The translations under genes and the position numbers were made by a program. From Polynucleobacter wuianus (GTDB taxonomy: Bacteria > Pseudomonadota > Gammaproteobacteria > Burkholderiales > Burkholderiaceae), in assembly GCF_001659725.1 (NCBI RefSeq), contig NZ_CP015922.1, positions 1,978,163 to 2,010,162 of the forward strand: a DNA stretch of 32,000 nt. Direction: 5' to 3'. Positions within the stretch are counted from its first letter, which is position 1; every line of letters starts with the position of its first letter. This document shows positions 1,785-25,954 of the stretch, in pieces. Under the pieces are notes generated by a model. It saw only the letters and a list, made by a program, of their open reading frames with translations, was not told where the DNA came from and made no database searches.

Positions 1785-1789
1785 AAAAG

Positions 1790-3770: not shown

Positions 3771-3910
3771 GTTTTACTGCTACTACAAAACTTTGCTATT
3801 TGTTAAAGAGGGTTGAACTGTGTTGCGTTGTTCAATCTATGTATCTATTGTAAGATTTATTAACATGAATTATTATTACGACATAATCTATCTATACTTG
3901 TTAATATTAA

Positions 3911-4750: not shown

Positions 4751-4757
4751 AAGTATG

Positions 4758-4781
4758 AGCGTAGATTATTTTTACGCTTAA
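4758..4781 (+). repeat. Candidate recombinase core site 'c': AGCGTAGATTATTTTTACGCTTAA
   Basis: Inverted repeat of site a (22/24) and direct repeat of site d (22/24). It starts 8 nt after the stop of ORF 3911-4750. Confidence 0.6.
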
Positions 4782-4809
4782 AGACAATATAATTAACAAT
4801 CAAAATATT

Positions 4810-5742: not shown

Positions 5743-5765
5743 CGGCTTGATGTATCCTGCTCTTA

Positions 5766-6818
5766 ATGAGCAGAATACAAAATTTAACAATGAATCGTGG
5801 CGAATGGAGTGAAGCGTATGCGCTTCTTTCTCTTATTGCTAATGCTGATTTTGTTTTGTCGGATAAATCCTTAGCAGACGAAAATTCAACACAATTTAAA
5901 GTTAAATCCATTCTTATTCCCTCCAATACTCCCAATAAGTTTGTCAGTCTCGTTGTTCAAGACCAATCCGTTATTGCCAACTATGATGGGCAACAGAGTT
6001 CGACTCCTTTAACTGACATTGAAAGTGTTGCTAAAGCTCTTTTTCAAAAAATCTCATCCTCTTCTTCTACAACCTTCAGCTTTAATGAACTTGATACTTT
6101 ATGGACTAAATTTTTTAATCCACAAATAAAGGCTACAAGATCAGAAAAGAGTGATATTAAATTAGAGATTCTTGATACAAGCACACAACTTAAATCAATT
6201 AAAGGCTTTAGTATCAAAAGCAATTTGGGCGGGGCAACTTCTTTACTAAACGCTTCACAATCTACAAATTTCTTATACGAAGCGCCACACAAGATAAGCG
6301 TCCCAAACATCACCCCAAAAAAGTTAGGTAAATTTGTTAAGCCATTGCCATTGAAATATCTTGGCTCTGTTAATGAGACATACAAATTGAATCTAAATAA
6401 AGTAGATCAAAACTTAGAAAGTCTTATTAGTCACTTATTAGTTGAATACTATGGGGCAAGCAACAGAGAAAAATTTGTAAAAGATTTATTAGCTATTGTT
6501 GCCAATAAGAATCCGCTTAGTCTTTCTAACACAAGTGATTACAAGATAATCATGTCTAAGTTTTTAAGAGCTACAGCATTTGGTATGGTCCCAAGAGACT
6601 TATGGGATGGTGCTTTATCAGCAAGTGGTGGAATGATTATTGTTAAGGCTGACGGAAAATTAGCCAGCTTCTATTTAGATGATTCTCATTCTAACGCTAA
6701 CCTTGATAACTATTTGCTTGAACATAGTTTTTTTGACACGGCAAGCACAACAAGACATGACTTTGGTAAAGTTTTCGATGATAAGTTCTTCAAATTTAAT
6801 TTGCTGATAAGGCTTTAA
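5766..6818 (+). CDS. Type II restriction endonuclease, HpaII-like family (family assignment from memory, tentative)
   Basis: Lies immediately downstream of the m5C methyltransferase. Blocks GEWSE, KSDIKLEI, GFSIKSNLGGATSLLNASQSTNF, DTASTTRHDFG and a C-terminal LLIRL resemble my recollection of HpaII-family enzymes. The pair is visibly AT-richer than its neighbours. Confidence 0.7.
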   Translation: MSRIQNLTMNRGEWSEAYALLSLIANADFVLSDKSLADENSTQFKVKSILIPSNTPNKFVSLVVQDQSVIANYDGQQSSTPLTDIESVAKALFQKISSSSSTTFSFNELDTLWTKFFNPQIKATRSEKSDIKLEILDTSTQLKSIKGFSIKSNLGGATSLLNASQSTNFLYEAPHKISVPNITPKKLGKFVKPLPLKYLGSVNETYKLNLNKVDQNLESLISHLLVEYYGASNREKFVKDLLAIVANKNPLSLSNTSDYKIIMSKFLRATAFGMVPRDLWDGALSASGGMIIVKADGKLASFYLDDSHSNANLDNYLLEHSFFDTASTTRHDFGKVFDDKFFKFNLLIRL

Positions 6819-8033
6819 CTAAGCCAATTTCTCGGCGCTCATCATTGCGGTTAGCTTGCTATAGTGGCGCTCTATCATCACAACGCTTGTCCCCATCTGC
6901 TTCGCTAATGTGTGTATATCAATCCCATCAGCCAGCGCCAAAGTAGCGTAGGTATGTCGCAGGCTGTATAGCGTTCTATTTTGCCCACCAGCATCTTTCA
7001 TCAGCCCACTCTTTTTCATTAAGTTTCTAAAGATGTTTTCCATCAGATGTGGCATTTCGCCAGACTGAAGCGTAAAGACTCTTCTGTCCAGTTTTGCTTG
7101 GATTAGCTCGTTTAAGTCCATAAAGGGCAACTTGTGCCACCGCATTAACTCCTCCAAAACCTCTAAAACAGCGTTTTTAGCGATTAAATACCTTGCGCCT
7201 GTCTTGCCACTTACCCATATACGCAAATACCTCTTAGAGCCTATAAAGTGCCACTGTAAGTGTTTCCATCGCAAAGGCATTGACTCAGTGCTGTGTCTTA
7301 CGCCCGTATTAACCAAAAACTTTACATAAGCACAACAGAGGTAGCGTATTTCTGTAGATTGTTTATGCCACACATCTATCTGCCACTTAGGCATATAGGC
7401 ATACATCTGCTCCAACTCCTCTACCGTAAAAGCTGGGCGTGATTTGCCACGCTCCCCCGTAATATCTAACGGCACAATCATTTTGTTAAGTGGAATATAG
7501 CCTCTCGCCTTTGCCAGCGTCATCACTCTGTTGTAAGCCATTGCGTGATGCTTCTTTGTCATCTGCTTGGCATTCTTACCCATCTCCGCCAATCTCCAAG
7601 CCTCAAAGTCAGCTACTTCCTCGTCATCAATCTTTGCGACATCAAAGTTGCCAAAAAATGGGATTAAATACTTTTCTAAAATGAACAAATAGTCTTTGTA
7701 TTTGCGCTCAGTGCGTGGCGTTGTTGCCGTCCTCGCCATTCTGGTAATTTCTTCTCTTGCTAACTGCTTGAAACTTCTTGTAGAAGTAGCCAATCCAGCC
7801 TCTGTTCTAATTTTGACTGTCTCGTAGATGGAGATAGCCTGCTGTTTAGCCTGCGCCAAGTCTTCAGTTCCCGTTGAGGCTGAGTGCCACTTCCCATTAA
7901 CCAACTTGAAACGACAGTGCCACTGATGGGTATTAGGGCGCCTAAACACAGTAATTCTGCTATCAAGCAACTTCACTGCTTTAGGAGCGTAAATTATTTT
8001 TACGCTTGAAAATAACTGATTTAGATTTGACAT
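6819..8033 (-). CDS. int: Tyrosine integrase (P4-like, island-type), integrase 1
   Basis: GVRHSTE (Arg I), LRHTYATLAL (H-x-x-R), and the IERHYSKL tyrosine. It is a paralog of 9825-11096 (shared QWxxRF..KWH..STG, IWVSGKTG, LAKQMGTSV). The start is set at ATG 8033; the ORF track begins at an upstream TTG. It lies next to a tRNA fragment. Confidence 0.9.
   Translation of the reverse strand: MSNLNQLFSSVKIIYAPKAVKLLDSRITVFRRPNTHQWHCRFKLVNGKWHSASTGTEDLAQAKQQAISIYETVKIRTEAGLATSTRSFKQLAREEITRMARTATTPRTERKYKDYLFILEKYLIPFFGNFDVAKIDDEEVADFEAWRLAEMGKNAKQMTKKHHAMAYNRVMTLAKARGYIPLNKMIVPLDITGERGKSRPAFTVEELEQMYAYMPKWQIDVWHKQSTEIRYLCCAYVKFLVNTGVRHSTESMPLRWKHLQWHFIGSKRYLRIWVSGKTGARYLIAKNAVLEVLEELMRWHKLPFMDLNELIQAKLDRRVFTLQSGEMPHLMENIFRNLMKKSGLMKDAGGQNRTLYSLRHTYATLALADGIDIHTLAKQMGTSVVMIERHYSKLTAMMSAEKLA
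7986..8009 (+). repeat. Candidate recombinase core site 'd': AGCGTAAATTATTTTTACGCTTGA, inside the integrase 5' coding region
   Basis: A 22/24 direct repeat of site c with the same GCGT-N11-ACGC geometry. It overlaps roughly codons 9-16 of integrase 1. Confidence 0.55.
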
Positions 8034-8232
8034 TACAAACAACCCTTAAGCGTTGCTTGCTATTGTGTTTTCAGTTTTAGATTTGGGCTACCGCTTTTGT
8101 AATACCCTGTGAATGCCACCCGCTTGCGGGGTGAAGCTACAAATTGCCGTGTAGCGTGGTGTTTATTGAGCACCAAAATAGAGCTATGCTTAAAACAATG
8201 TTTAAGCACTGTTTTGACACGGACACTGTGCT

Positions 8233-8271
8233 TTATGATTCCGTCGCTCTAACCAGCTGAGCTAATTCGCC
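8233..8271 (-). pseudogene. 5' half of a tRNA(CAU) gene (Met or Ile2), truncated after the anticodon loop; copy 1
   Basis: The minus strand reads GGCGAAT-TA-GCTC-AGCTGGTTA-GAGC-G-ACGGA-ATCATAA (acceptor, D-arm, anticodon stem and loop). It is then followed by AGCACA rather than TCCGT, and no T-arm or 3' acceptor follows. It is part of the 48-bp direct repeat 8227-8274 = 31282-31329. Confidence 0.75.
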
Positions 8272-8388
8272 GAACTCGCTATTTTAGCGTAATTTAGCCT
8301 AGAGAGCTATTTCGAGCCGCCTAAATCCTTCTTCTCTTAAAAAACGGTGTTTTTACGGTAAATCTACGGTACACACCTTGTTTACAGA

Positions 8389-9824: not shown

Positions 9825-11096
9825 ATGCCCAAAGAAACAGAAGTGCTTGCCCTTTTCTTTCAAAGCACCTCTACCCCTGAAAAATCACCCCAACTTAAAT
9901 ATCTAGAAAACCTAGCTACTGGCAAGCTAGTACACATGAGGGATGGCAACATTACCCTCTATAAGCGAGAGCGCAGTAAGCAATGGCAAATGCGCTTTCG
10001 GCTTTATGACAAGAAGTGGCACAGAGTTAGTACTGGCTATGAGGATCTGGAATACGCCAAGAAGAAAGCTGGCGATATATATGACAGAGCCCGCTTTATG
10101 GAAGAGCTGGGATTGCCACCACTTAATAAGCGATTTGACTCTGCAGCTGAGGCTACAAAAGTAGAGTTACAGAGTGATTTAGATAATGGCGTTGGTAAAA
10201 AAATCTATGTAGATTACATATCCGTTATAGATAACTATCTAACCCCATTCTTTGGCAAAAAGCATTTAACCAATATCAACCATCAAGATATTGCTGAGTA
10301 TGAAGTTTGGCGAGCAGAAAAGATGAAACGCAAACTCATGCACTCAACCATGATGACCCACTTCTCCGCTTACAACAGGGTATTTGATCTAGCAATTAAA
10401 AGAGGCTGGCTTAGTGACAAACACCCAGTTCCAAGGTTAGGCACTAAAGGTGAAAAGAGCACTCCGAGACCTGCCTTCACTAGAAAAGAAATTGACTACT
10501 TACTGGAGTTCTTAAAAACATGGAGTCAAGGTGGCAAAACCCAAGAAGCTCACCTTGGCAGACTATTACTACGAGATTACATAGAAATACTAATGGCGAC
10601 AGGCATGAGACATGGAACAGAAGCATTCAATATCCAATGGCGACACCTAGAGTGGCATACAGATAAGAGTGTTCGATACCTGCGAATATGGGTAAGCGGT
10701 AAAACAGGTCCACGCTGGCTGATTGCAAGACATGAAGCGGTTCCCGTCATCGAACGCTTAAAAAGCCGGTTTACCGAATGGGATCATTTAACCCTCGACC
10801 AATTACTAGAAGAAAAGAGTGATGAGTTCTTGTGGCGACATCCCAATGGGGAGCGTCCTTATGACTTTGTCAGTAGCTTTAAGTGGCTCATGAAGGACTC
10901 AGGCTTATTGCTATCAACTACGGGGGCTAAACGCACTATGTACAGCTTTAGACACACATACGCTACGTTTAGCTTAGTGGAATGGGGCATGGATATACAT
11001 ACGCTAGCCAAACAGATGGGCACTTCCGTACAAATGCTAGAGCGGTTCTATAGCAAGCTCACCGCTACGCTTGCTGCAGAAAAGTTGGCAGGATAA
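9825..11096 (+). CDS. int: Tyrosine integrase, integrase 2 (paralog of integrase 1)
   Basis: GMRHGTE, FRHTYATF, LERFYSKL, and IWVSGKTGPRWLIA shared with integrase 1. The stop lies 2 nt before the right 19-bp direct repeat. Confidence 0.9.
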   Translation: MPKETEVLALFFQSTSTPEKSPQLKYLENLATGKLVHMRDGNITLYKRERSKQWQMRFRLYDKKWHRVSTGYEDLEYAKKKAGDIYDRARFMEELGLPPLNKRFDSAAEATKVELQSDLDNGVGKKIYVDYISVIDNYLTPFFGKKHLTNINHQDIAEYEVWRAEKMKRKLMHSTMMTHFSAYNRVFDLAIKRGWLSDKHPVPRLGTKGEKSTPRPAFTRKEIDYLLEFLKTWSQGGKTQEAHLGRLLLRDYIEILMATGMRHGTEAFNIQWRHLEWHTDKSVRYLRIWVSGKTGPRWLIARHEAVPVIERLKSRFTEWDHLTLDQLLEEKSDEFLWRHPNGERPYDFVSSFKWLMKDSGLLLSTTGAKRTMYSFRHTYATFSLVEWGMDIHTLAKQMGTSVQMLERFYSKLTATLAAEKLAG

Positions 11097-12206: not shown

Positions 12207-12644
12207 TCACTTACCAAACCCAGCACGTACAGCGCCGCTAGCTTGCTCTATTTGGGTGTCTAACTCTCCCGCCTCCACCGCACCCTTAATGATCTCTAAG
12301 GCTTTGATAAGCTCATCTGCAGTAGCAACTTCAACAGCCGTTTTGCCTTTTGCAAACTAAATTACGCGACTTCCATAGCGCACGTTTAAACAAACCTTGC
12401 CGTCACTAGACACAAACCACCACTGACGTACACGCTTTTGATGCTCTACGGTTTTACGTGACCCGTCATAGTCTTTAACTGATTTAAATTTCTTAACAGT
12501 AAAAGTACTGCCTTCACGCTGGGCTTTAGCTAACTGGATCTGCTCCCATACTTTTGTAGAGAGCTTATTGCGTCGCTGCAAAATGGGTGGAATAGACGTT
12601 GGCTTTTTGGAATTAACCATTTTCAAACTGTTTAATGTGCTCAT
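12207..12644 (-). pseudogene. Conserved hypothetical gene interrupted by a single in-frame TAG (95 aa + stop + 49 aa)
   Basis: After the TAG at 12357-12359 the same frame stays open for 49 more codons: FAKGKTAVEVATADELIKALEIIKGAVEAGELDTQIEQASGAVRAGFGK, then stop. Confidence 0.55.
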
Positions 12645-12789: not shown

Positions 12790-13173
12790 ATGAACTACAA
12801 GAAGAAACGATTAACTGACGCACAATTTAAGATTAATAACGATCAAAAATATGACTCGAAAATCACTGATAACTTCTTAAGGGAGTGCGGACTAAACCCG
12901 CAAACCTTTACAATCATGGCAAAAGAGTTAGTTCAGGCTCGCTTAGCGGCAGTGGATTTACTCAAAAATTACTCAAATCTTTTAAACAAACATCAAACCA
13001 AGGCACTCAATAAATTCAAAGGCAAAACAGCTAACAAAAAGAAATGCAATCAACTTAGCCCTACTTTGGCTTATCCAATACTCAATCTAGCTACCAAAAT
13101 CAAAAGACAGGCTCATAAACAAGAAGTGCAAGCAAGGCAAACTATTCAGGAACTAAGGTACAACCAACCTTAA
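12790..13173 (+). CDS. Hypothetical basic protein (about 127 aa)
   Basis: ORF only. The ATG at 12790 is preferred over the upstream TTG. No motif recognised. Confidence 0.4.
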   Translation: MNYKKKRLTDAQFKINNDQKYDSKITDNFLRECGLNPQTFTIMAKELVQARLAAVDLLKNYSNLLNKHQTKALNKFKGKTANKKKCNQLSPTLAYPILNLATKIKRQAHKQEVQARQTIQELRYNQP

Positions 13174-13445
13174 CAAACAGGTACAAACGCGGGTTGTAAT
13201 ACGTCGGCTAATGAGCCCGCACTTGGCATAACTGCTCTAAAGGTTATGCGCTACAAGTAGGCCGCAGGATTCCTAGGTTTTCTAGGTTTGAAGTTTTAAT
13301 TCATCTGTCTTCAATAAATCTTTTTAGAGTCGTGTTGCTGGGGAATACTTAGTACCAATCTACACGTAGCGGCGGCTATAGTACTTTTATAGTGCTATAG
13401 CCGTCGTTTGACAGAAGAATCTATTGCCCAATCAGCTAAAAGACA

Positions 13446-13496
13446 AAATGTGTGAGCGAAAGCGAAACACAGGACGAATGCAGTTCGTCCTTATAT
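13446..13496 (+). repeat. Conserved non-coding 'L' element, copy B
   Basis: See 301-360: same sequence blocks in the same order, hairpin GGACGAA-TGCAG-TTCGTCC. Confidence 0.6.
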
Positions 13497-13678
13497 GTGC
13501 CCTAGCAATATGGGGTATAGAAGCAAAATCACCACCCTGAATCTGTAAGTACTTCATATAAATTTTCCGCAGCTCTATTTTTACAGGGCACAGGACCCAT
13601 TCGGATATCAAATCATTCGTTTAAACAGCGATCTACTTCACTCGCATACATGGGTAGTCGAGTGCTAAATATATGTGC

Positions 13679-13693
13679 TTATACGAAGGATTT
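13679..13693 (-). repeat. 15-nt motif copy B (TTATACGAAGGATTT, the reverse complement of 916-930)
   Basis: Exact inverted match to the cassette A leader. Confidence 0.6.
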
Positions 13694-13714
13694 AGCCGTG
13701 GCATTTAAGCCACG

Positions 13715-13746
13715 AAATGTAATAGAAGTATGAAACTATTACATTT
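13715..13746. other. Perfect 11-bp-stem hairpin AAATGTAATAG-N10-CTATTACATTT in the recombinase B leader
   Basis: Read directly from the sequence. A positionally equivalent hairpin with a different sequence, ATAAGAA-N10-TTCTTAT, lies at 1039-1062 in copy A. Confidence 0.55.
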
Positions 13747-13859
13747 AGAGCTAAGTCATTGATTAATGGAAAGATCTTTGTAGGCAGATTTCGGTTGCTC
13801 AAACCAAACCTAAGAAAACATACTGTAGTTGCTTATTTATTACATTTTGGGAGCTACAT

Positions 13860-14426
13860 ATGTCACAAGCAAAAACATTAAACACAACAGAACTACGCAG
13901 AGTGCTAGATCACATCGCTACACGCAAGCATTCAGCCCGCAATCGATGTGCCCTGCTTTTAACCCATTACGCTGGAATGCGTGTCGGAGAAGTTGCAGCA
14001 CTTCGCATTTGCGACGTTTTAAACGACAGCGGAACGATTAAAGATGAAATCCGCTTAAAGCCAGAGCAAACCAAGGGCAAATACGCTAGAACTGTATATA
14101 TCAATGCCCGTATGCAAAAAGAGATAGTCCAGTACATCAAACTAATCCGCATTACAGATACCAATAAGCCTTTGTTCTACACCCAAAAACGAGCTGGGTT
14201 TTCAGCAAACACACTTACGCAGTACTTTCACTTCCTATATAGACGTGCGGGACTTGAAGGTTGCAGCTCTCATTCAGGAAGAAGGTCATTCCTAACTTCG
14301 TTGGCAAATAAAGGCACAGCCATACATATATTGAAATCCTTGGCAGGCCATCGCAATATTAGTACGACCGCTGGATATTTGTACTCCAGCCCAGACCAAA
14401 TGAAGGCCGCCGTAGAGCTAGTTTAA
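13860..14426 (+). CDS. Small (188 aa) catalytic-domain-only tyrosine recombinase (cassette B)
   Basis: GMRVGEVAALR, HSGRRSF, LAGH, TTAGYLY. It is a paralog of 1187-1753. Its 3' end overlaps the convergent gene 14418-15200 by 9 nt. Confidence 0.85.
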   Translation: MSQAKTLNTTELRRVLDHIATRKHSARNRCALLLTHYAGMRVGEVAALRICDVLNDSGTIKDEIRLKPEQTKGKYARTVYINARMQKEIVQYIKLIRITDTNKPLFYTQKRAGFSANTLTQYFHFLYRRAGLEGCSSHSGRRSFLTSLANKGTAIHILKSLAGHRNISTTAGYLYSSPDQMKAAVELV

Positions 14427-15200
14427 TAACTCTCTTGCTTCTGGAAGATAGTCGCTAGTGTCCGGAAATCTGCCAACAGTTGCATTAGCGATTAACTTTT
14501 TTGTATTTTCTAGGTTATACATCAGCGCACCATGCAACTTAGATCTATCGGCATCTGTCACTCTATTTGTTATCTCAGGACTACCCAATAGCCCATGCTT
14601 TTGAGCAAACTGATATGCAATAAAACCTTCTTTGACTGATTCTTTTTGATAATCAGAATAAATTTCAAGGTCCCTTTTGATAACTTCGTAACCAAACTTT
14701 TGCCCCAGTTGGAATATTTTTGCATTGGCAGTAGTGTTATCAAAGATGCTAAATTTTCTACGCTCCTGGTAGGCTTCTTGCATCCTCAAGATTTCATCAA
14801 ACTGTCTTCTCAATATTTTTATATCCAAGTGCAACGGCACTTCAAGCAGAAGTATTGGCGGCTCATTCGGGTCTTTAGCCTGTTTAAATTTGTAGTCCAA
14901 ATCCACTGGCTTAATTTCAGTAAAAGGAATTCTCTCCTTGAAAATTTTGTAGCCCGTAGCTTTCCACCACTTCTCAAAAGTCAGATTACTCAGATCGCCA
15001 AATAACTTGCAAGTATCAGCAATTGCCTGATTCTTAAACTCTCTAGTCTTCTGAGCTTCAGCATACCAAGGCGATGCTTTAAGCACATCAAACCATGACT
15101 CATATATAGAGTGCTTGGCTTTAGAAGCCGATACCTCAAGGCTAAAGCCGTAGATGTCATCTTCTACTGGAAAGCCTTTATAAAAATGCAACTCGTCCAT
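14418..15200 (-). CDS. Conserved cassette protein of unknown function (260 aa), paralog of 3911-4750
   Basis: Shared LKASPWYAEA and ATVGRFP blocks. It is divergent from the 263-aa gene. Confidence 0.7.
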   Translation of the reverse strand: MDELHFYKGFPVEDDIYGFSLEVSASKAKHSIYESWFDVLKASPWYAEAQKTREFKNQAIADTCKLFGDLSNLTFEKWWKATGYKIFKERIPFTEIKPVDLDYKFKQAKDPNEPPILLLEVPLHLDIKILRRQFDEILRMQEAYQERRKFSIFDNTTANAKIFQLGQKFGYEVIKRDLEIYSDYQKESVKEGFIAYQFAQKHGLLGSPEITNRVTDADRSKLHGALMYNLENTKKLIANATVGRFPDTSDYLPEARELLN

Positions 15201-15339
15201 ACATTCCTTCAGAAAAAGCTCTTCGAGGCGAATTCTTAAGTCGATCTTCTCGACCGAACCCCACTTTTCAAACGAAAATTTTTCTATCGCGAATAAGCAA
15301 ATTTATTCGTGATTTTTTCTTAACTTAAAGGAGCATACC

Positions 15340-16131
15340 ATGGCAACAACTAAGCAATTTATTCCATCCATTCAAAACAATGTCTTTGCTAAAAAGATTA
15401 TTCAGTCTTTAAATAAACTCTCTGAGCTTCGCCAAGAGTGGGAACAAACAACGTACAAGAAGGCAACTGATGGCTTGTACTCCTTGCTCACTCACTGCTT
15501 TAAAACTTACGACTCAAATTTCGTTAATGCTACTGACGCAGATCGTAAAACCTTGCGCTTAGAGCTAATGAATCGTCTGAAAAAAGAACGTATCAAGGTA
15601 GTTCCATCCACAACAACACTAACGATGTTAATTCGTTTCGTGTTTCAGTCTGACCGCAAACGTGCTCACGTATATGGTTACGCAATCAAAGCTGCTATCT
15701 CTCATGGCGTTACTCCAGATAACTTTACCCATTGGTTGATTACCAATCATGGCATCGAGGAAGTAAAAGCAGAACTAAAAGAGTCTGATGAGACTAAGAA
15801 GAAAAAAGCTGCTTTCAAAGAGGCTAAAGATTTAGTAGATGCTGATATCGAAGAGAAAACTGCCAATCCAATCATGCAGTTTGCTCTAAAGGGAATCAAG
15901 GGTACGCACGGCATTCTGCTTGTAAAGGCAACGCCAGATGGTGAAGTAGGCGTTGTTGGCGTAGTGACCGACCCTAAAGAGTCTTTGGTAAAGGCCGTCG
16001 TCAAACAAATGGCCCAGGAAAAGACTGCGGACATGGCTGTTGATAAGGCCGTATCAAACGAGTCTCACGATCTGTTAGCTCAGATGAAAAAAGAGGCCGC
16101 AAATCACCCGCAGCTTCGTAAAGCCGCTTAA
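15340..16131 (+). CDS. Conserved cassette protein of unknown function (263 aa), paralog of 2862-3674
   Basis: Shared FVFQSDRKRAHVYGYAIKAAISHGV block and a strong AAGGAG Shine-Dalgarno sequence. Confidence 0.7.
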   Translation: MATTKQFIPSIQNNVFAKKIIQSLNKLSELRQEWEQTTYKKATDGLYSLLTHCFKTYDSNFVNATDADRKTLRLELMNRLKKERIKVVPSTTTLTMLIRFVFQSDRKRAHVYGYAIKAAISHGVTPDNFTHWLITNHGIEEVKAELKESDETKKKKAAFKEAKDLVDADIEEKTANPIMQFALKGIKGTHGILLVKATPDGEVGVVGVVTDPKESLVKAVVKQMAQEKTADMAVDKAVSNESHDLLAQMKKEAANHPQLRKAA

Positions 16132-16150
16132 TTAAAAAGGAGAAAGAATC

Positions 16151-16861
16151 ATGCGTGTAGCAGACAAACATAAACCAAAGAACCTCGACGAGGTGATTTA
16201 CCCAAATCAAACAGTAAAGGAGCGCATCATGGCTCATGCTACTGGCGGGTTAACTGGCAACCTGATGTTATGGGGTCCCAATGGAACCTCCAAGTCAACC
16301 GTTGCTAATTTACTCCCAGTAGCAATTAGCGGTGAGAATGCCTTCGTTGAAACTAAGTCTCTCAATGTATTGATGGATCACCCTCAATTTGAAGAGATTA
16401 TTTCGAAGTCTTGCCTTTTAACGACATTTACTGATAGCCATCAGTACTACATCGTTTCCCATGAGCTTGATAACTACAAAATCAAAGCCCATGAGTTTTG
16501 GGTATTGATGGACAAGTACAGCACACAAATGAAGGTCATCATCACAACCAATGACCCAATGAAGGTGCATCCGAGCATTCGTTCACGCTGCACACCAGTG
16601 CACTTTCCTGCCGTGCAGCCGCATCAAGTGCTTAAACGTGCTCAATACATTTTGCAACAAGAAGGAGTACACCTTACAGATGCGGCTGTAATGCACTATT
16701 TGAGCGCAGTTCAGCATCATGGCGATCTGCGTAAGTACTTTGAAAAGCTAGATGACCTCATCTTCTTACAAAGTAAAGGTACGCCATTTCCACCAGTACC
16801 AACGGGAACTCAGGCCGCCAATCGCCTTTCTGTAGTGCCTGTTATCAAGAAAGCTGCATAA
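16151..16861 (+). CDS. Clamp-loader-clade AAA+ ATPase, cassette B
   Basis: DKHKPKNLDEVI box, Walker A GPNGTSKS, Walker B-like IVSHELD, sensor-1 IITTN, and a canonical SRC motif (IRSRCTPVHF). Confidence 0.8.
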   Translation: MRVADKHKPKNLDEVIYPNQTVKERIMAHATGGLTGNLMLWGPNGTSKSTVANLLPVAISGENAFVETKSLNVLMDHPQFEEIISKSCLLTTFTDSHQYYIVSHELDNYKIKAHEFWVLMDKYSTQMKVIITTNDPMKVHPSIRSRCTPVHFPAVQPHQVLKRAQYILQQEGVHLTDAAVMHYLSAVQHHGDLRKYFEKLDDLIFLQSKGTPFPPVPTGTQAANRLSVVPVIKKAA

Positions 16862-16871
16862 CTTAAATCAC

Positions 16872-16896
16872 GGAACGTCTAAATCCTAGACGTTCC
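16872..16896 (+). repeat. Hairpin H2 (GGAACGTCTA-AATCC-TAGACGTTCC)
   Basis: Perfect 10-bp stem with no T-run after it. Arms are shared with H1 and H3. Confidence 0.55.
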
Positions 16897-16913
16897 TCCA
16901 TTGGAGATCAGAT

Positions 16914-17213
16914 ATGAAAAACGCCCCTTATACAAAAATCAATGCCTCACCTACAGAGTTTGCTCATGTAGCTAATACCACCGCAATTCAAGTAATCAAT
17001 GCGAAATATCGTAATTCCACGATCAATGGAGTGCTGGAACTCGCTAATGGCAAGGACTCATTTCAAATTCACGGGTCTAAGCTCTGTGCGAAGGCAAAGT
17101 TAGGGTGGTTTGGAATGGAGTTTAAAAAGGGTTTTCGCCTAATTGAGCTAAACATGGCTCAGGTGAAGGTATTGCAAAACTACACCGGCAATGTCATTGC
17201 CAAACTCGCTTAA
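16914..17213 (+). CDS. Hypothetical protein (99 aa)
   Basis: ORF in an operon position after the AAA+ gene. No similarity by eye to the 105-aa protein of cassette A. Confidence 0.45.
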   Translation: MKNAPYTKINASPTEFAHVANTTAIQVINAKYRNSTINGVLELANGKDSFQIHGSKLCAKAKLGWFGMEFKKGFRLIELNMAQVKVLQNYTGNVIAKLA

Positions 17214-17223
17214 GGAGACTGCC

Positions 17224-17706
17224 ATGACAAAACTATGGATTGTGGCTTGCGATAGCGATGGGCATGTATTAGGGGTTTTTGACAATCAAAAAGCTGCTAA
17301 TGATTGCAATGAATATTGGCATGAATACCATGAGTTAACCACAACTGAAATTGATATTACTAAAACAATGTCCGAATTTGTTGGAGTTAAAACAGAGCAC
17401 GATATTGCTACCATAAGCCGCTATTACGAAGTAAAAGATGCATTGCATAAAGAGACTTCAAAGTTTCGTGATGAGTTCTTGGTTGCCAAACGCAATTATC
17501 AAAACTCAATGATCTCGTTTGTAGAAAAATACGATGTTAAGGATAATGTAGACTTTAGCGACTTTTTAAGCGAGCAATTTAGCGCCCTAGAAAGTATTCA
17601 CGTCAAAAACTCAGGCGCAAATTATGTAGATATTGAAATGGTTTTAGAGTGGATCATTCGTAGTCATCTAAATTTTGTAAAGCTAGAGGAAATGCTTGAA
17701 CAGTAA
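17224..17706 (+). CDS. Hypothetical acidic protein (160 aa)
   Basis: The internal ATG at 17224 is preceded by AAGGAG at good spacing, so it is preferred over the track start at 17191. Confidence 0.5.
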   Translation: MTKLWIVACDSDGHVLGVFDNQKAANDCNEYWHEYHELTTTEIDITKTMSEFVGVKTEHDIATISRYYEVKDALHKETSKFRDEFLVAKRNYQNSMISFVEKYDVKDNVDFSDFLSEQFSALESIHVKNSGANYVDIEMVLEWIIRSHLNFVKLEEMLEQ

Positions 17707-17711
17707 TGAAA

Positions 17712-17742
17712 ATAGCCTTGGTTTATATCAAGGCTATTTTTT
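17712..17742 (+). terminator. Rho-independent terminator ATAGCCTTG-N8-CAAGGCTAT followed by TTTTT
   Basis: 9-bp stem and a T-run directly after the last cassette B gene. Confidence 0.65.
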
Positions 17743-17812
17743 AGTGCGATCCATTACCACTCCGAGACTCCATTTAACGACCGCTTACGACCCAAGGGAG
17801 ACCTTGGAGGAC
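17741..17812 (+). repeat. Junction repeat X1 (TTAGTGCGATCCATTACCACTCCGAGA.. with a tail ..TAACGACCGCTTACGACCCAAGGGAGACC)
   Basis: The core recurs at 25925-25954 and 29979-30005. The tail resembles the Y repeats at 21087-21150 and 23949-24070. Confidence 0.6.
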
Positions 17813-17843
17813 AAGTCCAGTAACTCATCCCCCTAGTGTGTTA

Positions 17844-18344
17844 CTACCTTGACCGATCCATCCACATATAGTTCTGCTGCATCATTTGGTTCATCATGTT
17901 CTGCTGCATACCCATGTATTGATCCATCATGTATTGGCGTTGCTTTAACTGCTCAGGTGTTAATTTAGAGTAATAGGGGCCCATACCATTCCAACCCATC
18001 ATGTGTCCACCCATCATGCCGCCGTTACCACCACAACAACCCATCATTCCCGAACCCCACATGCCTTGCATCATATTCATGTTGCCCTGCATTGTGCTCC
18101 AGTGAGCCTGCATCAGCTTTTGCCTTTCTTGCGGATCTTGAGTTGCACGGATCTGATCCATCTGCTGTTGCATCTTTTTAAAGTTCTCTTGAATTTGAGC
18201 GGCTTGCTTATCAAACTCCGCTACATCAACATTTTTTTGTTGTGTCTGTGAGGCTTTAGTGCCCGCCCCTGCTGTTTGCGCCAAAACGGGCGCACTTAGT
18301 AAAACACCTAAACTTAAAATCGCAACCCATCCTAGCTTTTTCAT
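17844..18344 (-). CDS. Periplasmic Met/Gln/Gly-rich metal-binding protein, ZraP/CpxP-like
   Basis: Signal peptide MKKLGWVAILSLGVLLSAPVLA, an LTPEQLKQ (LTxxQ-type) motif, and a GMMGCCGGNGGMMGGHMMGW tract reminiscent of the ZraP C-terminus. The start is set at 18344, which has an AAGGAG Shine-Dalgarno sequence. Confidence 0.6.
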   Translation of the reverse strand: MKKLGWVAILSLGVLLSAPVLAQTAGAGTKASQTQQKNVDVAEFDKQAAQIQENFKKMQQQMDQIRATQDPQERQKLMQAHWSTMQGNMNMMQGMWGSGMMGCCGGNGGMMGGHMMGWNGMGPYYSKLTPEQLKQRQYMMDQYMGMQQNMMNQMMQQNYMWMDRSR

Positions 18345-21086: not shown

Positions 21087-21150
21087 TTATTGGCCGATTT
21101 GAGACTATGAAGTCAATTGCAACTAACGGTCGCATCTCGACCCAAAGCAG
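21087..21150 (+). repeat. Junction repeat Y1 (TTATTGGCCGATTTGAGAC .. TAACGGTCGCATCTCGACCCAAAG)
   Basis: Related copies at 23949-24070 and (head only) 25367-25378. The tail is similar to the X1 tail. Confidence 0.55.
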
Positions 21151-21162
21151 TCATAAAAAGAA

Positions 21163-21182
21163 AAACCACCCGAAGGTGGTTT
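21163..21182 (-). terminator. Rho-independent terminator (AAACCACC-TTCG-GGTGGTTT plus T-run on the minus strand)
   Basis: GC-rich stem, TTCG loop and T-run downstream of the minus-strand operon that ends at 21213. Confidence 0.7.
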
Positions 21183-21212
21183 AGATTGAATGTAGATACG
21201 CCTATGAACTTT

Positions 21213-21608
21213 TTAACTCGAGATCAGAGGTTGCACAAAAGCAAACCAACCCCCGGTTAAATAAAGCAATAAGCTCAGGCTATAAACGATTAATGAAGCC
21301 TTGCGCGTTCTCATGCAGGCATCTCTTAATGTGGGATCAGTTGGGCATGGAGCAAATCTACCGCGCCATTGCATATAACCACTAATAGAGAGCATCACTC
21401 CCGCAAAAATAAATACTTCTACCTTGTGCTCGCTAATCCATACAATCTTTGGAAAGATGGAAATAAAGGTGGATAAAGTAGCACCCGCACCTAATGCCAC
21501 TAAAAGTGCTGGAATAGCGCAACAGATCAAAGTGCTTGAACTGGCAAAGAGCGTCGCAACACTGGTAAGGAGATTGCTTTTGGGTGCGATCATTTTTTCA
21601 GGAATCAT
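21213..21608 (-). CDS. MerT-like membrane metal transporter (131 aa)
   Basis: Transmembrane CC motif LICCAIPALLVALGAG resembles MerT CCLGPLVLVALG. A second Cys pair is CPTDPTLRDAC. There is an ATGA overlap with the upstream HMA gene. Confidence 0.6.
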   Translation of the reverse strand: MIPEKMIAPKSNLLTSVATLFASSSTLICCAIPALLVALGAGATLSTFISIFPKIVWISEHKVEVFIFAGVMLSISGYMQWRGRFAPCPTDPTLRDACMRTRKASLIVYSLSLLLYLTGGWFAFVQPLISS

Positions 21609-21931
21609 TTGTTAGCCACTAGTTCTGCTTTGAGTTCTGCAACACTTTTAGGTACTGACTCTACTTTGACGATGTCATACCCTGCATCCTTGACTTCCTC
21701 AATAATGGCCTTTTGATCCAAAGCCATGCCGTCTTTTGGCTCAACAACGACGGTCTTTTGTTTGAGATCCACATAGACGGCCTTGGTTGATAGCATTTTA
21801 GAAATTCGCTTTTCAATACCTTGAGCACAAAAAGCGCAGACCATGCCATTGACGGTTGCTTTCATACTGGTTACTGCAAATGCTGGGGATAAAGTGAGGG
21901 CTAAGAGCGTTGCTATAAAAATCTTTTTCAT
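21605..21931 (-). CDS. Periplasmic heavy-metal-associated (HMA) domain protein, MerP-like
   Basis: Signal peptide plus the GMVCAFCAQGIEK (MxCxxC) motif. Confidence 0.8.
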   Translation of the reverse strand: MKKIFIATLLALTLSPAFAVTSMKATVNGMVCAFCAQGIEKRISKMLSTKAVYVDLKQKTVVVEPKDGMALDQKAIIEEVKDAGYDIVKVESVPKSVAELKAELVANK

Positions 21932-21953
21932 TTGGGAATCCTTGTTAGTTCAT

Positions 21954-22592
21954 TTAGTAGACATACATAAAGCTCAGGCGGGGTTGGCCATGAAGGTTCG
22001 CCCCTGCCTCTACAAAAATACGGTTATGGATCAGCCGAAGCATAGGCGTGACTTCATACTGGGTTGATACCATCGACATTCTTCTAGCTTCCACGATCAA
22101 CCATGGCTGGGTCTCATCGTAGTTGGCTTCATAGAAAGAAAAGCCAGCTCTTGCCGAAACTACATTATTGGTAATGCCATCAGCCACATAGATGCGAGCA
22201 TTAGCTGAAGCATACAAACGAGTAGTCTCATAATCAGCCTGAATGCCAGGGGATACCGTAGCTTTAGTGCCGCTAAAGTAGTTACCTGTAGTCTCACCAA
22301 CGCCGCCGATAAACCAAATATTGGCTTGTGCTTCTGGCATATTCCAACGCTTAACTAATCGAGTGTAGGTGAGCTCATTATTAAGCTGAGTTTGCGAATA
22401 GTTATTCGTTTGCATATAGGTCGAAGTCACACCAATAGCATCTCTAGGAGTCAAGGCGTAGTTGGCTGTTTGCTCTCGAAAGGTTTTACTAAAATCACCC
22501 ATCGTCATCCAGCTATCCTTAAATCCCATTGGCGCGGCTTGAGCGCTAAGGCTGAGCAAAAGACTGCCTATGAATACAAGCCATACCCTCAT
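21954..22592 (-). CDS. Putative outer-membrane beta-barrel protein (212 aa)
   Basis: Signal peptide (..SLSAQA/AP), alternating beta-strand pattern, and a C-terminal aromatic residue (..SFMYVY). Confidence 0.55.
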   Translation of the reverse strand: MRVWLVFIGSLLLSLSAQAAPMGFKDSWMTMGDFSKTFREQTANYALTPRDAIGVTSTYMQTNNYSQTQLNNELTYTRLVKRWNMPEAQANIWFIGGVGETTGNYFSGTKATVSPGIQADYETTRLYASANARIYVADGITNNVVSARAGFSFYEANYDETQPWLIVEARRMSMVSTQYEVTPMLRLIHNRIFVEAGANLHGQPRLSFMYVY

Positions 22593-22870
22593 GGCGCCTT
22601 CTCCAGGGCAACTACTTCTAGCGCCCCATCACTGATTTTGACCTGAAAGCGTACCTGATCACCTGCTTTATAGCCCTTAAGATTTAACTTGGGCGCAGTA
22701 TCAAAAAGCATAGTCATAGCATCCATATCAATGCTTTGAATCCGCTCATGCTTAAGCACAATACGATGACGCTCAGGCTCTACTTTGACTATTTGCGCTT
22801 TGGTCCAATCAGGCGCCGCCCAAGACAGTGAAGTGATGAGAAATAAAATACCAAATACAAATTTTTTCAT
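22589..22870 (-). CDS. CusF-like periplasmic copper/silver-binding protein
   Basis: Signal peptide. The block VKVEPERHRIVLKHERIQSIDMDAMTMLF matches the CusF-type pattern (..ITIxHxxIxxLxWPAMTMxF). Confidence 0.7.
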   Translation of the reverse strand: MKKFVFGILFLITSLSWAAPDWTKAQIVKVEPERHRIVLKHERIQSIDMDAMTMLFDTAPKLNLKGYKAGDQVRFQVKISDGALEVVALEKAP

Positions 22871-22941
22871 GTTTCCCCCAAAGGAAAGTTAATTAGATAA
22901 ACAACTCCATCCAAATTTTGGACGGACTACTGCTAGGGGGA

Positions 22942-23292
22942 TTACAAAATGGGTGGCTTGATGGGTAGAGCTAAGAGTGCGCCATATACGAATAATGGCT
23001 CTTGCTGTGCAAATTGATACGAGAGTTGCTTAAAATTCATCGCTATGGATGGCAACGCAAATGCAAATGCCATACACAAGGAGCAGGCATTACAAGTGGG
23101 TTTGTCATGTTGCTCAGATTGAGGGTCTTGCTTGCTAGAGCTTTGCATCATCTCGCAATGACTGGCATCGCTATCAGCTATCATTTCCATGGAATGCGTT
23201 GGCTGAGCCATACTAAAACCCATACTCTCAGACGCAAAAGAGCGAATGGGCAATAGGACAACTAACAGGATAAGTAGGCAAACGCGAAGCAT
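22942..23292 (-). CDS. Exported His/Cys/Met-rich small protein (116 aa)
   Basis: Signal peptide, HSMEM, HCEMM and a CNACSLC cluster. First gene of the minus-strand metal operon. Confidence 0.5.
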   Translation of the reverse strand: MLRVCLLILLVVLLPIRSFASESMGFSMAQPTHSMEMIADSDASHCEMMQSSSKQDPQSEQHDKPTCNACSLCMAFAFALPSIAMNFKQLSYQFAQQEPLFVYGALLALPIKPPIL

Positions 23293-23351
23293 GTTGTGAT
23301 TCTAGCTACTTTTGTAAAAGCCTGCTTTCCCAATGGCACAAATGAAAAACG

Positions 23352-23474
23352 CTATTTTTTACTAAAAAAGAGATATTTCGTTAAAGCGGCAATTGAAAGG
23401 ACAAGGACAATCAAAACTAAGATTCCAATCAACCCCATTCCACCCATCATTGAGCCATCCATAAATTGATTCAT
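23352..23474 (-). CDS. Possible 40-aa membrane peptide (MNQFMDGSMMGGMG plus one transmembrane helix)
   Basis: My own translation. A GGAGGG Shine-Dalgarno sequence lies 6 nt upstream. Too short for the ORF track. Confidence 0.3.
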   Translation of the reverse strand: MNQFMDGSMMGGMGLIGILVLIVLVLSIAALTKYLFFSKK

Positions 23475-23578
23475 ATCACCCTCCATTAGGCTAAGCACCT
23501 AGTTTCATCCTATGCCTATCTAGGCAGCATGTCTAGGTTTCTATAAACTGAACTGCAACTTATCATTTAGAGGCTCAA

Positions 23579-23929
23579 ATGGCTTGGATCATTACTAAAT
23601 ATCTTCTAACCGCAGGAATGGTTGTATTCATTTCTGAGGTTGCCAAGAGAAGTGACAGATTGGGCGGATTTATTGCGGCATTGCCCGTAATGACTCTTTT
23701 AACTCTTTTAACTCTTTTATGGCTTTATTTAGAAAACCAGCCTGAAGAGAAGATAGCTAATCACGCTTATTACACCTTCTGGTATGTGATTCCAACATTG
23801 CCTATGTTTCTATTATTTCCATACTTACTTCCAAAGCTGGGGTTCTGGATAACCATGGGTGTATGCGTAGTGGTAACGGTTATTTGCTTTGGATTATTTG
23901 CCCTTGTGATGAAGGGTTTTGGGATCTAA
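23579..23929 (+). CDS. Small multi-pass membrane protein (116 aa, DUF3147-like from memory)
   Basis: Hydrophobic throughout. Contains an in-frame 9-bp x3 repeat. Confidence 0.6.
   Translation: MAWIITKYLLTAGMVVFISEVAKRSDRLGGFIAALPVMTLLTLLTLLWLYLENQPEEKIANHAYYTFWYVIPTLPMFLLFPYLLPKLGFWITMGVCVVVTVICFGLFALVMKGFGI
23694..23720 (+). repeat. Perfect tandem repeat (ACTCTTTTA)x3, in frame, encoding (TLL)x3
   Basis: Read directly from the sequence. Confidence 0.9.
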
Positions 23930-23948
23930 CTTCTCTGAGTAAGGGCCG

Positions 23949-24070
23949 TTACTGGCCGATTTGAGATTCCCAAAACAATAAATTAGCCTGATCTCAGCGT
24001 CTGCAGTTGGCCGCATAGTAACCATTCGACTGAACTAAGTCCCACTGGCGCTGTCCGACCCACAAGAGAC
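23949..24070 (+). repeat. Junction repeat Y2 (TTACTGGCCGATTTGAGAT ... GTCCGACCCACAAGAGAC)
   Basis: The head and tail match Y1, with extra internal sequence. Confidence 0.5.
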
Positions 24071-25856: not shown

Positions 25857-25954
25857 TAAAAGCGACGCTTCATTACACACCCATCAAATACCGCTATAAC
25901 TTATGGAAATACCTAGCGATTACATTAGTGCGACCTATTACCGCTCCGAGAGTC
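25857..25954 (+). repeat. Composite junction repeat (degenerate half-P + ATTACACAC..CAAATA.. spacer + X2 core)
   Basis: Collinear with 29905-30005. Confidence 0.55.

Follow-up and report, generated by a model that had tools for sequence, protein, structure and literature searches.

Polynucleobacter, Limnohabitans, and the Methylophilaceae are among the most abundant freshwater bacteria and have streamlined genomes with few classical plasmids or conjugative elements. The route by which these bacteria exchange genes is an open question. A 32,000-nt stretch of Polynucleobacter wuianus DNA (contig NZ_CP015922.1, positions 1,978,163 to 2,010,162; called the window below, with positions counted from its first letter) contains two related gene cassettes, A and B. 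Each comprises a gene for a small tyrosine recombinase and a unit in which one orphan gene (P260 in cassette B) diverges from a second orphan gene (P263) and the gene for an AAA+ ATPase. A first-pass annotation, made from the sequence alone, described the cassettes as copies of the same four gene families with this unit in opposite orientations, and suggested that copy B may be locked in one orientation. What, then, is cassette B, and why is it flipped relative to cassette A? Comparison with other genomes indicates that it is one of two diverged copies of a conserved four-gene core in a mobile-island family of freshwater bacteria. On balance, we lean toward the view that cassette B forms the conserved backbone of an island that inserts at tRNA genes and carries cargo, and that it would serve in the maintenance of the excised element. 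The analysis addresses the question of gene exchange by defining an uncharacterized island backbone, in which a mini Xer-like recombinase and its site are combined with members of two large orphan families and with a clamp-loader-type ATPase that has no collar. The islands are built from modules joined at short palindromes, and they provide DNA sites and proteins with which excision, maintenance, and cargo turnover can be studied.

The conserved core and the islands that carry it

Relatives of P263 were sought in one genome per species and were found at 26 genome loci in Polynucleobacter, Limnohabitans, Methylophilaceae, Oxalobacteraceae, and Zwartia. Besides the window, about 45 loci in genomes and metagenomes had the four-gene core of recombinase, P260, P263, and AAA+ ATPase, which recurs as a set in islands of freshwater Betaproteobacteria. 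On all contigs that reached far enough to show the neighboring genes, a divergent P260 homologue preceded P263 and an AAA+ gene followed it, and the gene for the 188-aa recombinase stood at either end of this unit, always pointing inward. The first-pass annotation had allowed that the gene order might prove random in other genomes, but exactly two arrangements were found across the 26 genome loci and the metagenome contigs: the "A" order at 15 genome loci and the "B" order at about 9, both of which recurred in metagenome contigs. At most loci of both arrangements, a DUF6641 homologue lies 1 to 1.5 kb from the recombinase, beyond the leader. An integrase of the int404/int407 family is located on the far side of the core, opposite the recombinase and DUF6641. 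Inside the frame fixed by the int404-type integrase on one side and by the recombinase and DUF6641 on the other, the P260|P263-AAA unit is inverted between the two orders. The inversion of the divergent unit relative to the recombinase and its leader, as originally proposed, is thus an inversion within a conserved flanking frame, and the conservation of the leader itself was borne out by an alignment of leaders. Circular permutation was considered as the source of the two orders and was rejected, because the recombinase and AAA+ genes are encoded on different strands in the A order. Integrases, DUF6641, and the recombinase accompany the core genes at essentially every locus, whereas defense cargo varies between related islands.

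The coordinates of the open reading frames (ORFs) agree with the gene order that had been read for cassette B (Table 1). The 9-nt tail-to-tail overlap of the recombinase and P260 genes (14418-14426) and the clean terminator at the end of the cassette, a hairpin followed by a T-run, were found as described, and so was the dyad CGAATAA-N6-TTATTCG, which lies inside a longer hairpin. Formal comparison of cassettes A and B by BLASTP gave 54% identity for the recombinases (E value of 1e-70), 29% for the AAA+ proteins (6e-20), and 25% for the 270-aa protein of A and the 263-aa P263 of B (3e-15). The 279-aa protein of A and the 260-aa P260 of B shared 28% identity over 123 aa with an E value of 0.07, and profile alignments (A4 and A5, with 17 and 30 sequences) placed them in one family with the invariant motifs L.xSPxY, FGD, WW..G, and NA..G.FP; a single family was also recovered by a profile search. 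The same four gene families are therefore present in both cassettes, with three pairs significant by BLASTP and the fourth by family profile. The genes downstream of the AAA+ gene differ between the copies, again as claimed: no similarity of the 105-aa protein of A to the 99-aa or the 160/171-aa protein of B was detected by BLASTP. The difference that had been noted in the arginine finger, SRC in B versus SRA in A, can indeed be read from the translations (IRSRC and LLSRA), but it is minor and carries little weight, because the arginine is invariant and the residue behind it is C, F, or A across 20 AAA+ family members. All ORFs are intact in both cassettes.

Each of the two cassettes has an island of its own. 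When the sequence was extended leftward from island 1, recA, recX, and sucCD were found, followed by an intact tRNA-Met(CAT) gene (L037:5741-5817) about 3 kb before the start of the window. An exact 35-mer is common to this gene and to two copies of its 5' half inside the window, and both half copies are spanned by a 62-nt direct repeat, D3 (8227-8288 and 31282-31343). Since one intact tRNA gene is accompanied by two 5'-half copies, the window holds two islands in tandem at a single tRNA-Met(CAT) gene. Island 1, of about 11.3 kb, contains int341, DUF6641, a 162-aa gene, cassette A, an HpaII restriction-modification pair, and int407. Island 2, of about 23 kb (approximately 8.27 to 31.33 kb), contains an exonuclease gene, int423, DUF6641, cassette B, and cadmium/zinc and copper resistance cargo. 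Tyrosine integrases of this large type would carry out the integration at the tRNA gene. The same island type is found between the same two tRNA-half repeats on a metagenome contig (L002), where the copper block is relocated and adjoins an att copy and other cargo lies behind cassette B; int423 is kept together with cassette B there and in L004. All proteins of cassette B are identical on a 319-kb contig of assembly GCA_018881695.1, and the 263-aa protein is annotated in P. wuianus. A megablast search of PLSDB returned no plasmid relatives of either cassette. The window contains no tRNA and no Rfam family at the gathering threshold, PHROGs matches were limited to integrase and clamp-loader families, and no clamp gene was found in either island by ORF and family annotation. 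The tRNA repeats comprise the 5' half up to the anticodon loop, so that the islands carry the 5' and not the usual 3' part of the tRNA gene.

Tycheposons are defined as tRNA-targeting islands that carry cargo and an integrase, with or without a small replication module (bioRxiv 10.1101/2020.12.28.424599), and tRNA-linked additive islands as well as tycheposons have been reported in freshwater Methylophilaceae (PMC10872708). The islands described here resemble the tycheposons of Prochlorococcus, "Ca. Methylopumilus," and OM43 in their insertion at tRNA genes (including tRNA-Met), partial-tRNA repeats, and tandem accretion, in the tyrosine integrases near one end, in the small conserved module beside the cargo, and in the lack of conjugation and capsid genes. 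Integration at a tRNA gene with full and partial tRNA copies, by which tycheposons are defined, is present in the window; the likeness is one of anatomy. However, the hallmark genes of tycheposons are those for integrase, excisionase, and primase/helicase/polymerase, whereas the module found here consists of an Xer-like mini-recombinase, two orphans, and an RFC-like ATPase, and palindrome-delimited modules are absent from the tycheposon description (bioRxiv 10.1101/2020.12.28.424599). In the literature, no description was found of this module, of DUF6641, of clamp-loader-like proteins on mobile elements, or of palindrome-delimited islands.

Table 1. Coordinates of cassette B, its surroundings, and related features in the window
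Feature	Position(s)	Strand	Basis or remark
Cassette A, island 1	1035-4750		Leader dyad 1035-1066; recombinase 1187-1753 (+); 105 aa, AAA+, and 270 aa (-); 279 aa 3911-4750 (+)
Variant palindromes AGCGT(A/C)-N9-11-TACGCT, island 1	1792-1814, 3750-3769, 4758-4779, 7986-8007		Repeat search
tRNA-Met(CAT) 5'-half copy, island 1/island 2 junction	8237-8271	-	Direct-repeat and 35-mer match
Degenerate TGTCGTTTTAAACGACA palindromes, island 2	8392, 11102, 25392, 29905, 31092		Pattern search
int423, large tyrosine integrase (423 aa), island 2	9825-11096	+	Pfam Phage_integrase and SAM-like domains
Palindromes AAGCGTC-N9-GACGCTT, island 2	11974, 16872, 25783		Pattern search
DUF6641 gene, neighbor on the leader side of the recombinase	12357-12644	-	PF20346
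Two short hairpins (GTGTGAGC..ACACA; GGACGAA-TGCAG-TTCGTCC), outer edge of recombinase module	13450-13490		Similar sequence at 301-356 upstream of cassette A
Leader dyad 13-6-13 (AAATGTAATAGAA-GTATGA-AACTATTACATTT), candidate core site of the recombinase	13715-13746		Leader alignment
Leader boxes TAAGTCATTGATT..TGGAAAGATC, TTTCGGTTGCTC, TAAGAAAACATACT	13752-13824	+	Alignment of 24 leaders from several genera
Xer-like tyrosine recombinase, 188 aa, catalytic domain only	13860-14426	+	Pfam, NCBIfam, PDB
P260, 260-aa orphan	14418-15200	-	Family profile
Dyad with 12-bp stem and T-run, 27 nt upstream of P263 start	15286-15313	+	Contains CGAATAA-N6-TTATTCG (15289-15308)
P263, 263-aa orphan helical protein	15340-16131	+	Family search, AF2
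RFC-small-subunit-like AAA+ ATPase, domains I and II	16151-16861	+	PHROG, NCBIfam, PDB
Junction palindrome GGAACGTCTAAATCCTAGACGTTCC between AAA+ gene and cargo	16872-16896		Palindrome family
Accessory cargo genes, 99 aa (16914-17213) and 160/171 aa	16914-17706	+	ORFs; last gene 171 aa from 17191, or 160 aa from 17224 according to gene callers, ending at 17706
Intrinsic-terminator-like hairpin and T-run, closing the P263-AAA-cargo operon	17709-17740	+	Hairpin scan
27-bp direct repeat, first of three	17741-17767	+	Repeats also at 25925 and 29979
tRNA-Met 5'-half copy 2, island 2 right end	31292-31326	-	Direct-repeat and 35-mer match

The first-pass annotation had let cassette B begin at 13446, which falls at the two hairpins on the outer edge of the recombinase module.

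Recombinase, leader dyad, and orientation of the core

The recombinase of cassette B matched the Pfam family Phage_integrase (PF00589) with an E value of 2e-25 over residues 6 to 176, and the catalytic residues of the tyrosine recombinase superfamily, R (GMRVGE), K (TKGK), HSGRR, GH, and Y (AGYLY), are readable in the translation. XerA and XerD were the best matches in NCBIfam, XerA and XerH those in PDB. The NCBIfam models of XerA, XerD, and XerC were matched over their C-terminal halves only, with 60 to 87 bits compared to cutoffs of 220 to 335; the scores are so far below the cutoffs because the N-terminal domain is missing, and the protein does not have the two-domain build of approximately 300 aa that characterizes XerC and XerD. 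Models of integron integrases gave weak matches (7e-10 and 1e-4), far below their cutoffs, and the protein has 188 aa versus approximately 320 in those integrases. A match to the NCBIfam model for tyrosine-type DNA invertases (1e-10) was also below the cutoff, and the catalytic-domain-only size of 188 aa is that of Fim-type recombinases.

The DNA of the leader is more strongly conserved than the neighboring proteins, as seen in the alignment of 24 leaders. Its consensus is a dyad, ..AAGAAAA-N6-TTTTCTT.., followed by TAAGTCATTGATT..TGGAAGATC, TTTCGGTCG.CC, and AAGAAAACACACT, and the box TAAGAAAACATACT of cassette B resembles a third copy of the dyad arm. A 13-6-13 dyad is present at the matching leader position in about 20 loci, including both cassettes of the window, and its arms change symmetrically between lineages. 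The 7-6-7 core of the dyad had 32 matches in 1.1 Mb of loci versus 0 in shuffles, almost always one per locus. This geometry corresponds to dif-like sites, which have such arms and a spacer of 6 to 8 bp. In XerS/difSL, XerH/difH, Cre/loxP, and ResD/rfsF, the site adjoins the recombinase gene. The island system is like these in that a recombinase with affinity to Xer proteins has a dyad site with a 6-bp spacer directly upstream of its own gene, but it differs from such single-recombinase systems in the 188-aa protein without an N-terminal core-binding domain, in the 13-bp arms, and in the location of the site on an integrated island and not at a chromosome terminus or on a plasmid.

Six Methylophilaceae-type islands are nearly identical in the right arm of the dyad and on its gene side, whereas the left arm, the spacer, and the left flank are unrelated. 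In a whole-locus comparison, a block with 93% identity runs exactly from the palindrome behind the recombinase gene to the dyad. This block and the break of homology inside the dyad are the footprint that site-specific crossover at the dyad would be expected to leave. Together, the recombinase gene and the leader form a separately exchangeable module. A second variable slot is located on the other side of this module, between DUF6641 and the recombinase leader (13173-13512 versus 258-1035 in the window; 4980-5985 in L158 versus 7562-8175 in L159). The genes in this slot encode 132 aa (+) in B, 162 aa (-) in A, 157 aa (-) in L158, and 94 aa (+) in L159.

If the recombinase flipped the P260|P263-AAA unit, the cassettes would be phase-variable switches, with copy A switchable and copy B locked by the loss of a junction site. 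Indeed, both orientations occur within one conserved frame, in size and domain content the recombinase corresponds to Fim-type invertases, in agreement with the invertase match given above, near-palindromic elements lie on both sides of the unit in cassette A and at many loci, and the junction palindrome between the recombinase and P260 genes is absent in B, L011, and L023. However, neither two inverted flanking sites nor both orientations among near-identical strains, as known from Fim-type systems, were found in the assembled sequences compared. No second leader dyad was detected within approximately 7 kb in cassettes A and B or in 16 other loci. L036 is the sole locus with two dyad cores (12565 and 15860), and these are direct repeats 3.3 kb apart; the genes between them are that for a WYL regulator and five small ones, and the core lies elsewhere. 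Where the contig was long enough, the identical AAA+ protein of B was in the B order in all eight places listed, four further relatives of B at about 80% identity were all in the B order, and the closely related Methylophilaceae-type islands that were compared were all in the A order. Among closely related cores, no orientation difference was found, and the closest pair of cores with different orders was only 51 to 62% identical at the protein level. Moreover, since the unit carries its own divergent promoter, its inversion would bring no obvious change in expression. An invertible switch is therefore unsupported, because near-identical copies never differ in orientation and no flanking recombinase sites were found, and we regard it as very improbable. 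What remains of the earlier proposal is that cassette B lacks the palindrome at the recombinase/P260 junction; a locked copy B would agree with the data only if a hypothetical inversion mechanism is granted.

The alternative to a switch is an ancient rearrangement. L025 (A order) and L030 (B order) have recombinases with 99% identity, but P260, P263, and AAA+ proteins with only 28, 50, and 35% identity, respectively. Conversely, L030 and L031 are 99% identical in P263 and 96% in the AAA+ protein and 82% in the recombinase. Since these identity matrices are discordant, the recombinase and the core have separate histories. On neighbor-joining trees, the order changes at least three times along the core tree and at least five times along the recombinase tree, and the orientation is stable within lineages. 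The difference in orientation between A and B is therefore an old, rare, and recurrent rearrangement between modules, a fossil of module shuffling and not a switch.

P260, P263, and the ATPase

The AAA+ ATPase of cassette B matched phrog_168 (clamp loader) with an E value of 2e-22, the NCBIfam model of the RFC small subunit with 7e-17, and RFCS in PDB (1iqp) with 4e-11 over residues 5 to 202. The matches cover positions 10 to 205 of the 322 positions of the RFC small-subunit model and residues 17 to 214 of the 327-aa 1iqp_A, and the resemblance to RFC small subunits, T4 gp44, and DnaX does not reach beyond domains I and II. An alignment of 20 family members shows conservation of Walker A (GPNGT[GS]K[ST]), of the glutamate in Walker B, of TTN in sensor 1, and of the arginine in the SRC motif. 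The protein is thus similar to the clamp loaders (RFC small subunit, T4 gp44, DnaX/delta') in its two AAA+ domains and in the Walker A, sensor-1, and arginine-finger motifs. It differs from them in that it lacks the collar, is a stand-alone protein (226 to 247 aa in the family) encoded on a mobile island beside orphans, has a variable first Walker B residue, and carries a Pro-rich tail. This tail, behind the lid, ends in ..P.L.[VI][VI]-COOH in 17 of the 20 members (16770-16861 in B) and is absent from the ATPase of cassette A. The P263 and AAA+ genes are separated by 19 nt in B and overlap in L018, L019, and L023. The ATPase of B ends in KKAA, and most P263 members end in ..AA, often LAA; by analogy to the ssrA/ClpXP degron, which these ends resemble, this suggests a regulated instability.

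P263 belongs to a large family, with 1140 clusters at 50% identity (E ≤ 1e-3) and 744 clusters at E ≤ 1e-10, almost all full length. No Pfam domain was found in the family, including ten long or distant relatives, and the family is absent from IMG/VR contigs. In its AF2 model (pLDDT of 77), P263 consists of helices, the C-terminal one being long, and a single beta hairpin, and Foldseek found no match to this model in PDB or BFVD. Of the core proteins, P260 varies most. It had no match in Pfam, NCBIfam, PHROG, or PADLOC, and its AF2 model (pLDDT of 68) and sequence had no counterpart in PDB by Foldseek and a profile search against PDB sequences. The two orphan genes diverge from a common region (15201-15339), and the dyad with T-run that precedes P263 is a candidate operator or attenuator of this divergent promoter region, as judged by its position. 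Other loci have different, lineage-specific dyads at the matching position. A scan of 13400-17900 for sigma-70 promoters gave fewer matches than in shuffles.

How could these genes serve an island? In the reading that we favor, the small recombinase would act on the 13-6-13 dyad in its own leader, as in single-recombinase Xer/dif or Cre/lox systems, and would resolve multimers of the excised circle, while its crossovers would also swap neighboring DNA between islands. P263 and the ATPase would be co-transcribed, in some loci with translational coupling, and would form an ATP-driven DNA-transaction machine. The whole trio, P260 included, would be expressed from the dyad-controlled divergent promoter and would maintain or replicate the excised element, and the C-terminal tail of the ATPase might engage the sliding clamp of the host. 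The combination of a resolvase-like recombinase, an adjacent site, and toxin-antitoxin cassettes in related islands may be seen as having, by analogy, a flavor of plasmid maintenance.

Several points weigh against a backbone with such a role. The ATPase ends after the lid and the Pro-rich tail without a collar domain (III), the first Walker B position varies (H, N, E, or D) where a fixed D would be expected, and the possible binding of the tail to the clamp is a tentative reading from its likeness to the beta-clamp-binding motif, QL[SD]LF. Furthermore, the ATPase is dispensable in some lineages, since two divergent loci, L038 (9195-11618) and L096 (2965-5328), have P260, P263, and the recombinase but no AAA+ gene. 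Fold and profile searches with both orphans gave nothing below an E value of 0.08, so that neither has a Pfam, PDB, or BFVD match, and no initiator, primase, helicase, polymerase, relaxase, nuclease, or toxin domain and no origin was recognized in the backbone. As for the dyad, the one locus that has two of them (L036) has different spacers in the two, and in the B lineage the homology between L158 and L159 ends at approximately 13512, about 200 bp outside the dyad. Because these two loci diverge outside the dyad, 13512-13714 would belong to the recombinase module; this segment could hold accessory sequences. Finally, neither excision nor a circular form is among our observations, and the excised circle, like the functions assigned here to P260, P263, and the ATPase, is inferred, the latter from sequence.

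Two other readings of the trio were weighed. It could be an anti-phage or anti-plasmid defense system, of three or all four genes, that rides on the islands and uses the RFC-like ATPase as a sensor or effector. The islands do carry defense cargo, with the HpaII restriction-modification genes beside cassette A and Type ISP, MmeI-like restriction-modification, and PIF1 helicase genes in L035 and L036; all three proteins are orphan or atypical, and P260 has the high variability often seen in specificity subunits. However, PADLOC 2.0 returned no match for any protein of cassette B and only marginal, generic AAA+ matches for the ATPase of A, no nuclease, toxin, or other effector domain was found by Pfam and NCBIfam, and the linkage to integrases, DUF6641, and the recombinase is that of a backbone and unlike that of variable defense cargo. 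A defense function is thus unlikely in our judgment. Alternatively, the cassettes could be remnants of degraded elements that share their order merely as inherited synteny, which would agree with the compactness of island 1 with its two integrases and with the many orphan genes on the islands. This is contradicted by the intact ORFs in both copies, by a P263 family with more than 700 almost exclusively full-length clusters at E ≤ 1e-10, and by the catalytic and ATPase motifs, which are kept over more than 20 lineages at 30 to 60% identity and therefore imply purifying selection. We consider decay next to excluded.

Junction palindromes and the cargo slot

A family of palindromes of 21 to 27 bp, with the consensus (T)CAAG-CGTC-NNG-NNN-CNN-GACG-CTTG(A), is found just behind gene ends throughout the islands, at almost all boundaries between modules. 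The density is 3 to 8 per 14-kb locus compared to 0.03 to 0.09 expected, an enrichment of about 30- to 200-fold. The 5.7 kb of core genome that adjoin island 1 on its left had no such palindrome, and neither did the flanks of L002. In the outer five pairs, which had not been used in the selection, 72.6% of the cells were complementary compared to 58.5% in shuffles. Double-sided changes in these pairs numbered 93 versus 42 expected (0 of 500 shuffles), and the signal collapsed when the partner was slid. A metagenome scan with the palindrome pattern only returned 120 mostly short contigs, 46 of which also encoded a backbone protein. Since no T-run follows the palindromes, classic intrinsic terminators were rejected as the sole explanation. 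In the reading favored here, the palindromes would be functional junctions. In island 1, the copies at 1792 and 4758 flank the core of cassette A in inverted orientation, and the copy at 3750 lies in its divergent promoter region.

The interval between the AAA+ gene and the recombinase gene was compared in Methylophilaceae-type islands whose recombinases are 97 to 99% identical (L025, L027, L032, L036, and L050), and it contained 0, 1, 1, at least 2, or 3 small modules. The modules include RelB/RelE-like and DUF4258/MqsA-like pairs, as read from translations, and each is bounded by one palindrome. In pairwise alignments, every boundary of an insertion or deletion falls in a palindrome, of which the shorter locus has one copy and the longer locus two. 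The suggestion of the first-pass annotation that a variable cargo position lies behind the AAA+ gene is thus well founded: the slot is empty or holds one to three unrelated small modules in related islands. The 99-aa and 160/171-aa genes of cassette B and the 105-aa gene of cassette A are thus contents of this slot and not parts of the core. Homologues of the 99-aa gene were present only in some Polynucleobacter loci, and neither it nor the 160/171-aa gene had a family match in Pfam, NCBIfam, PADLOC, or PHROG.

Gain and loss of cassettes at palindromes resembles integrons, without establishing membership. Like integrons, the islands have a leader site by a tyrosine recombinase gene, small co-oriented cassettes that end in imperfect palindromes, toxin-antitoxin content, and gain and loss of cassettes exactly at the palindromes. 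The differences are that the recombinase lacks the IntI-specific domain, that the palindromes have 21 to 27 bp versus 57 to 141 bp for attC with its R''/L''/L'/R' boxes, that the array is convergent with and not divergent from the recombinase gene, and that palindromes also separate backbone genes. In an integron-like capture platform, the palindromes, folded or as duplexes, would be substrates of the small recombinase or of one of the large integrases, and "gene plus palindrome" cassettes, the core unit included, would be inserted, deleted, and inverted in this way. Such a platform would explain the arrays of small co-oriented cassettes with one palindrome each beside a tyrosine recombinase gene, whose toxin-antitoxin content is typical of chromosomal integrons. 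It would also explain the insertions and deletions exactly at palindromes with duplication of the palindrome, the covariation that preserves the dyad, and the restriction of the palindromes to islands, where they flank the invertible unit at most loci. However, the palindromes have a 3-nt center, and a staggered cleavage of 6 to 8 bp fits only if they are read as arms of 7 to 8 bp around a palindromic spacer of 7 to 9 bp. Moreover, deletions are possible by ordinary recombination between identical 27-bp repeats, the palindromes may be hairpin terminators or RNA-stability elements that travel with the genes, the recombinase is without the extra IntI domain, and neither a free cassette circle nor an attC-like R/L box structure was shown. 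We therefore hold capture of this kind to be rather improbable. If the palindromes are true recombination sites, they would represent a new mechanism of gene capture alongside integrons.

In a related proposal, the islands would be gene-shuffling platforms, whose tyrosine recombinases, above all the 188-aa mini-Xer, recombine both the palindromes and the leader dyad and so insert, excise, exchange, and at times invert modules of a gene plus its palindrome. This would be an integron-like system that has neither IntI nor attC, and the RFC-like ATPase with P263 would be an accessory DNA-loading or regulatory machine, by analogy to TnsC, MuB, and IstB. We give this proposal a small chance. Short dyad sites with conserved outer arms and a variable center that bound gene modules and mark points of rearrangement are also known from the pdif modules of Acinetobacter plasmids, which use the XerC/D of the host, and from dRS3/NIME in Neisseria, where dRS3 occurs genome-wide. 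The island sites differ from these in sequence and hosts, and they are seemingly restricted to a single island family with recombinases of its own.

Another type of junction, or an attachment site, could be represented by a 27-bp non-palindromic direct repeat, TTAGTGCGAYCYATTACYRCTCCGAGA, found at 17741-17767, 25925-25951, and 29979-30005, where it separates the backbone from successive blocks of cargo. Its three matches in the window compare with 0 expected. The first copy ends at 17767, precisely where the homology of L005 to the window stops, and in L002 copies at 11591 and 15312 flank a different block of cargo.

Some further repeats were observed. In L014, L017 to L024, L028, and L029, the P263 gene itself contains the sequence CGTCCAG-NNN-CTGGACG at about codons 55 to 60, where it encodes V-Q-x-L-D. 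Junction palindromes with CGTCCAG arms occur in these same lineages, so that the sequence inside the gene may be a site or may be self-complementary codons of a conserved V-Q-Q-L-D motif. In island 1, the cargo directly behind cassette A (4810-6818) is a complete HpaII-type pair of C5 methyltransferase and RE_HpaII. The variant palindromes at 4754-4787 and 7982-8015 are direct repeats of each other that bracket the HpaII restriction-modification genes together with int407, and the palindrome copy at 7986 overlaps the annotated start of int407. The related integrases int407 and int423 face one another across the shared att copy of the tandem islands, and the 3' ends of their genes (6823-6926 and 10986-11089) form an inverted repeat with 71% complementarity. 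In island 2, a 31-nt direct repeat (TTAYTGGCCGATTTGAGA..) at 21087-21117 and 23949-23979 flanks the block of copper genes (21138-23959).

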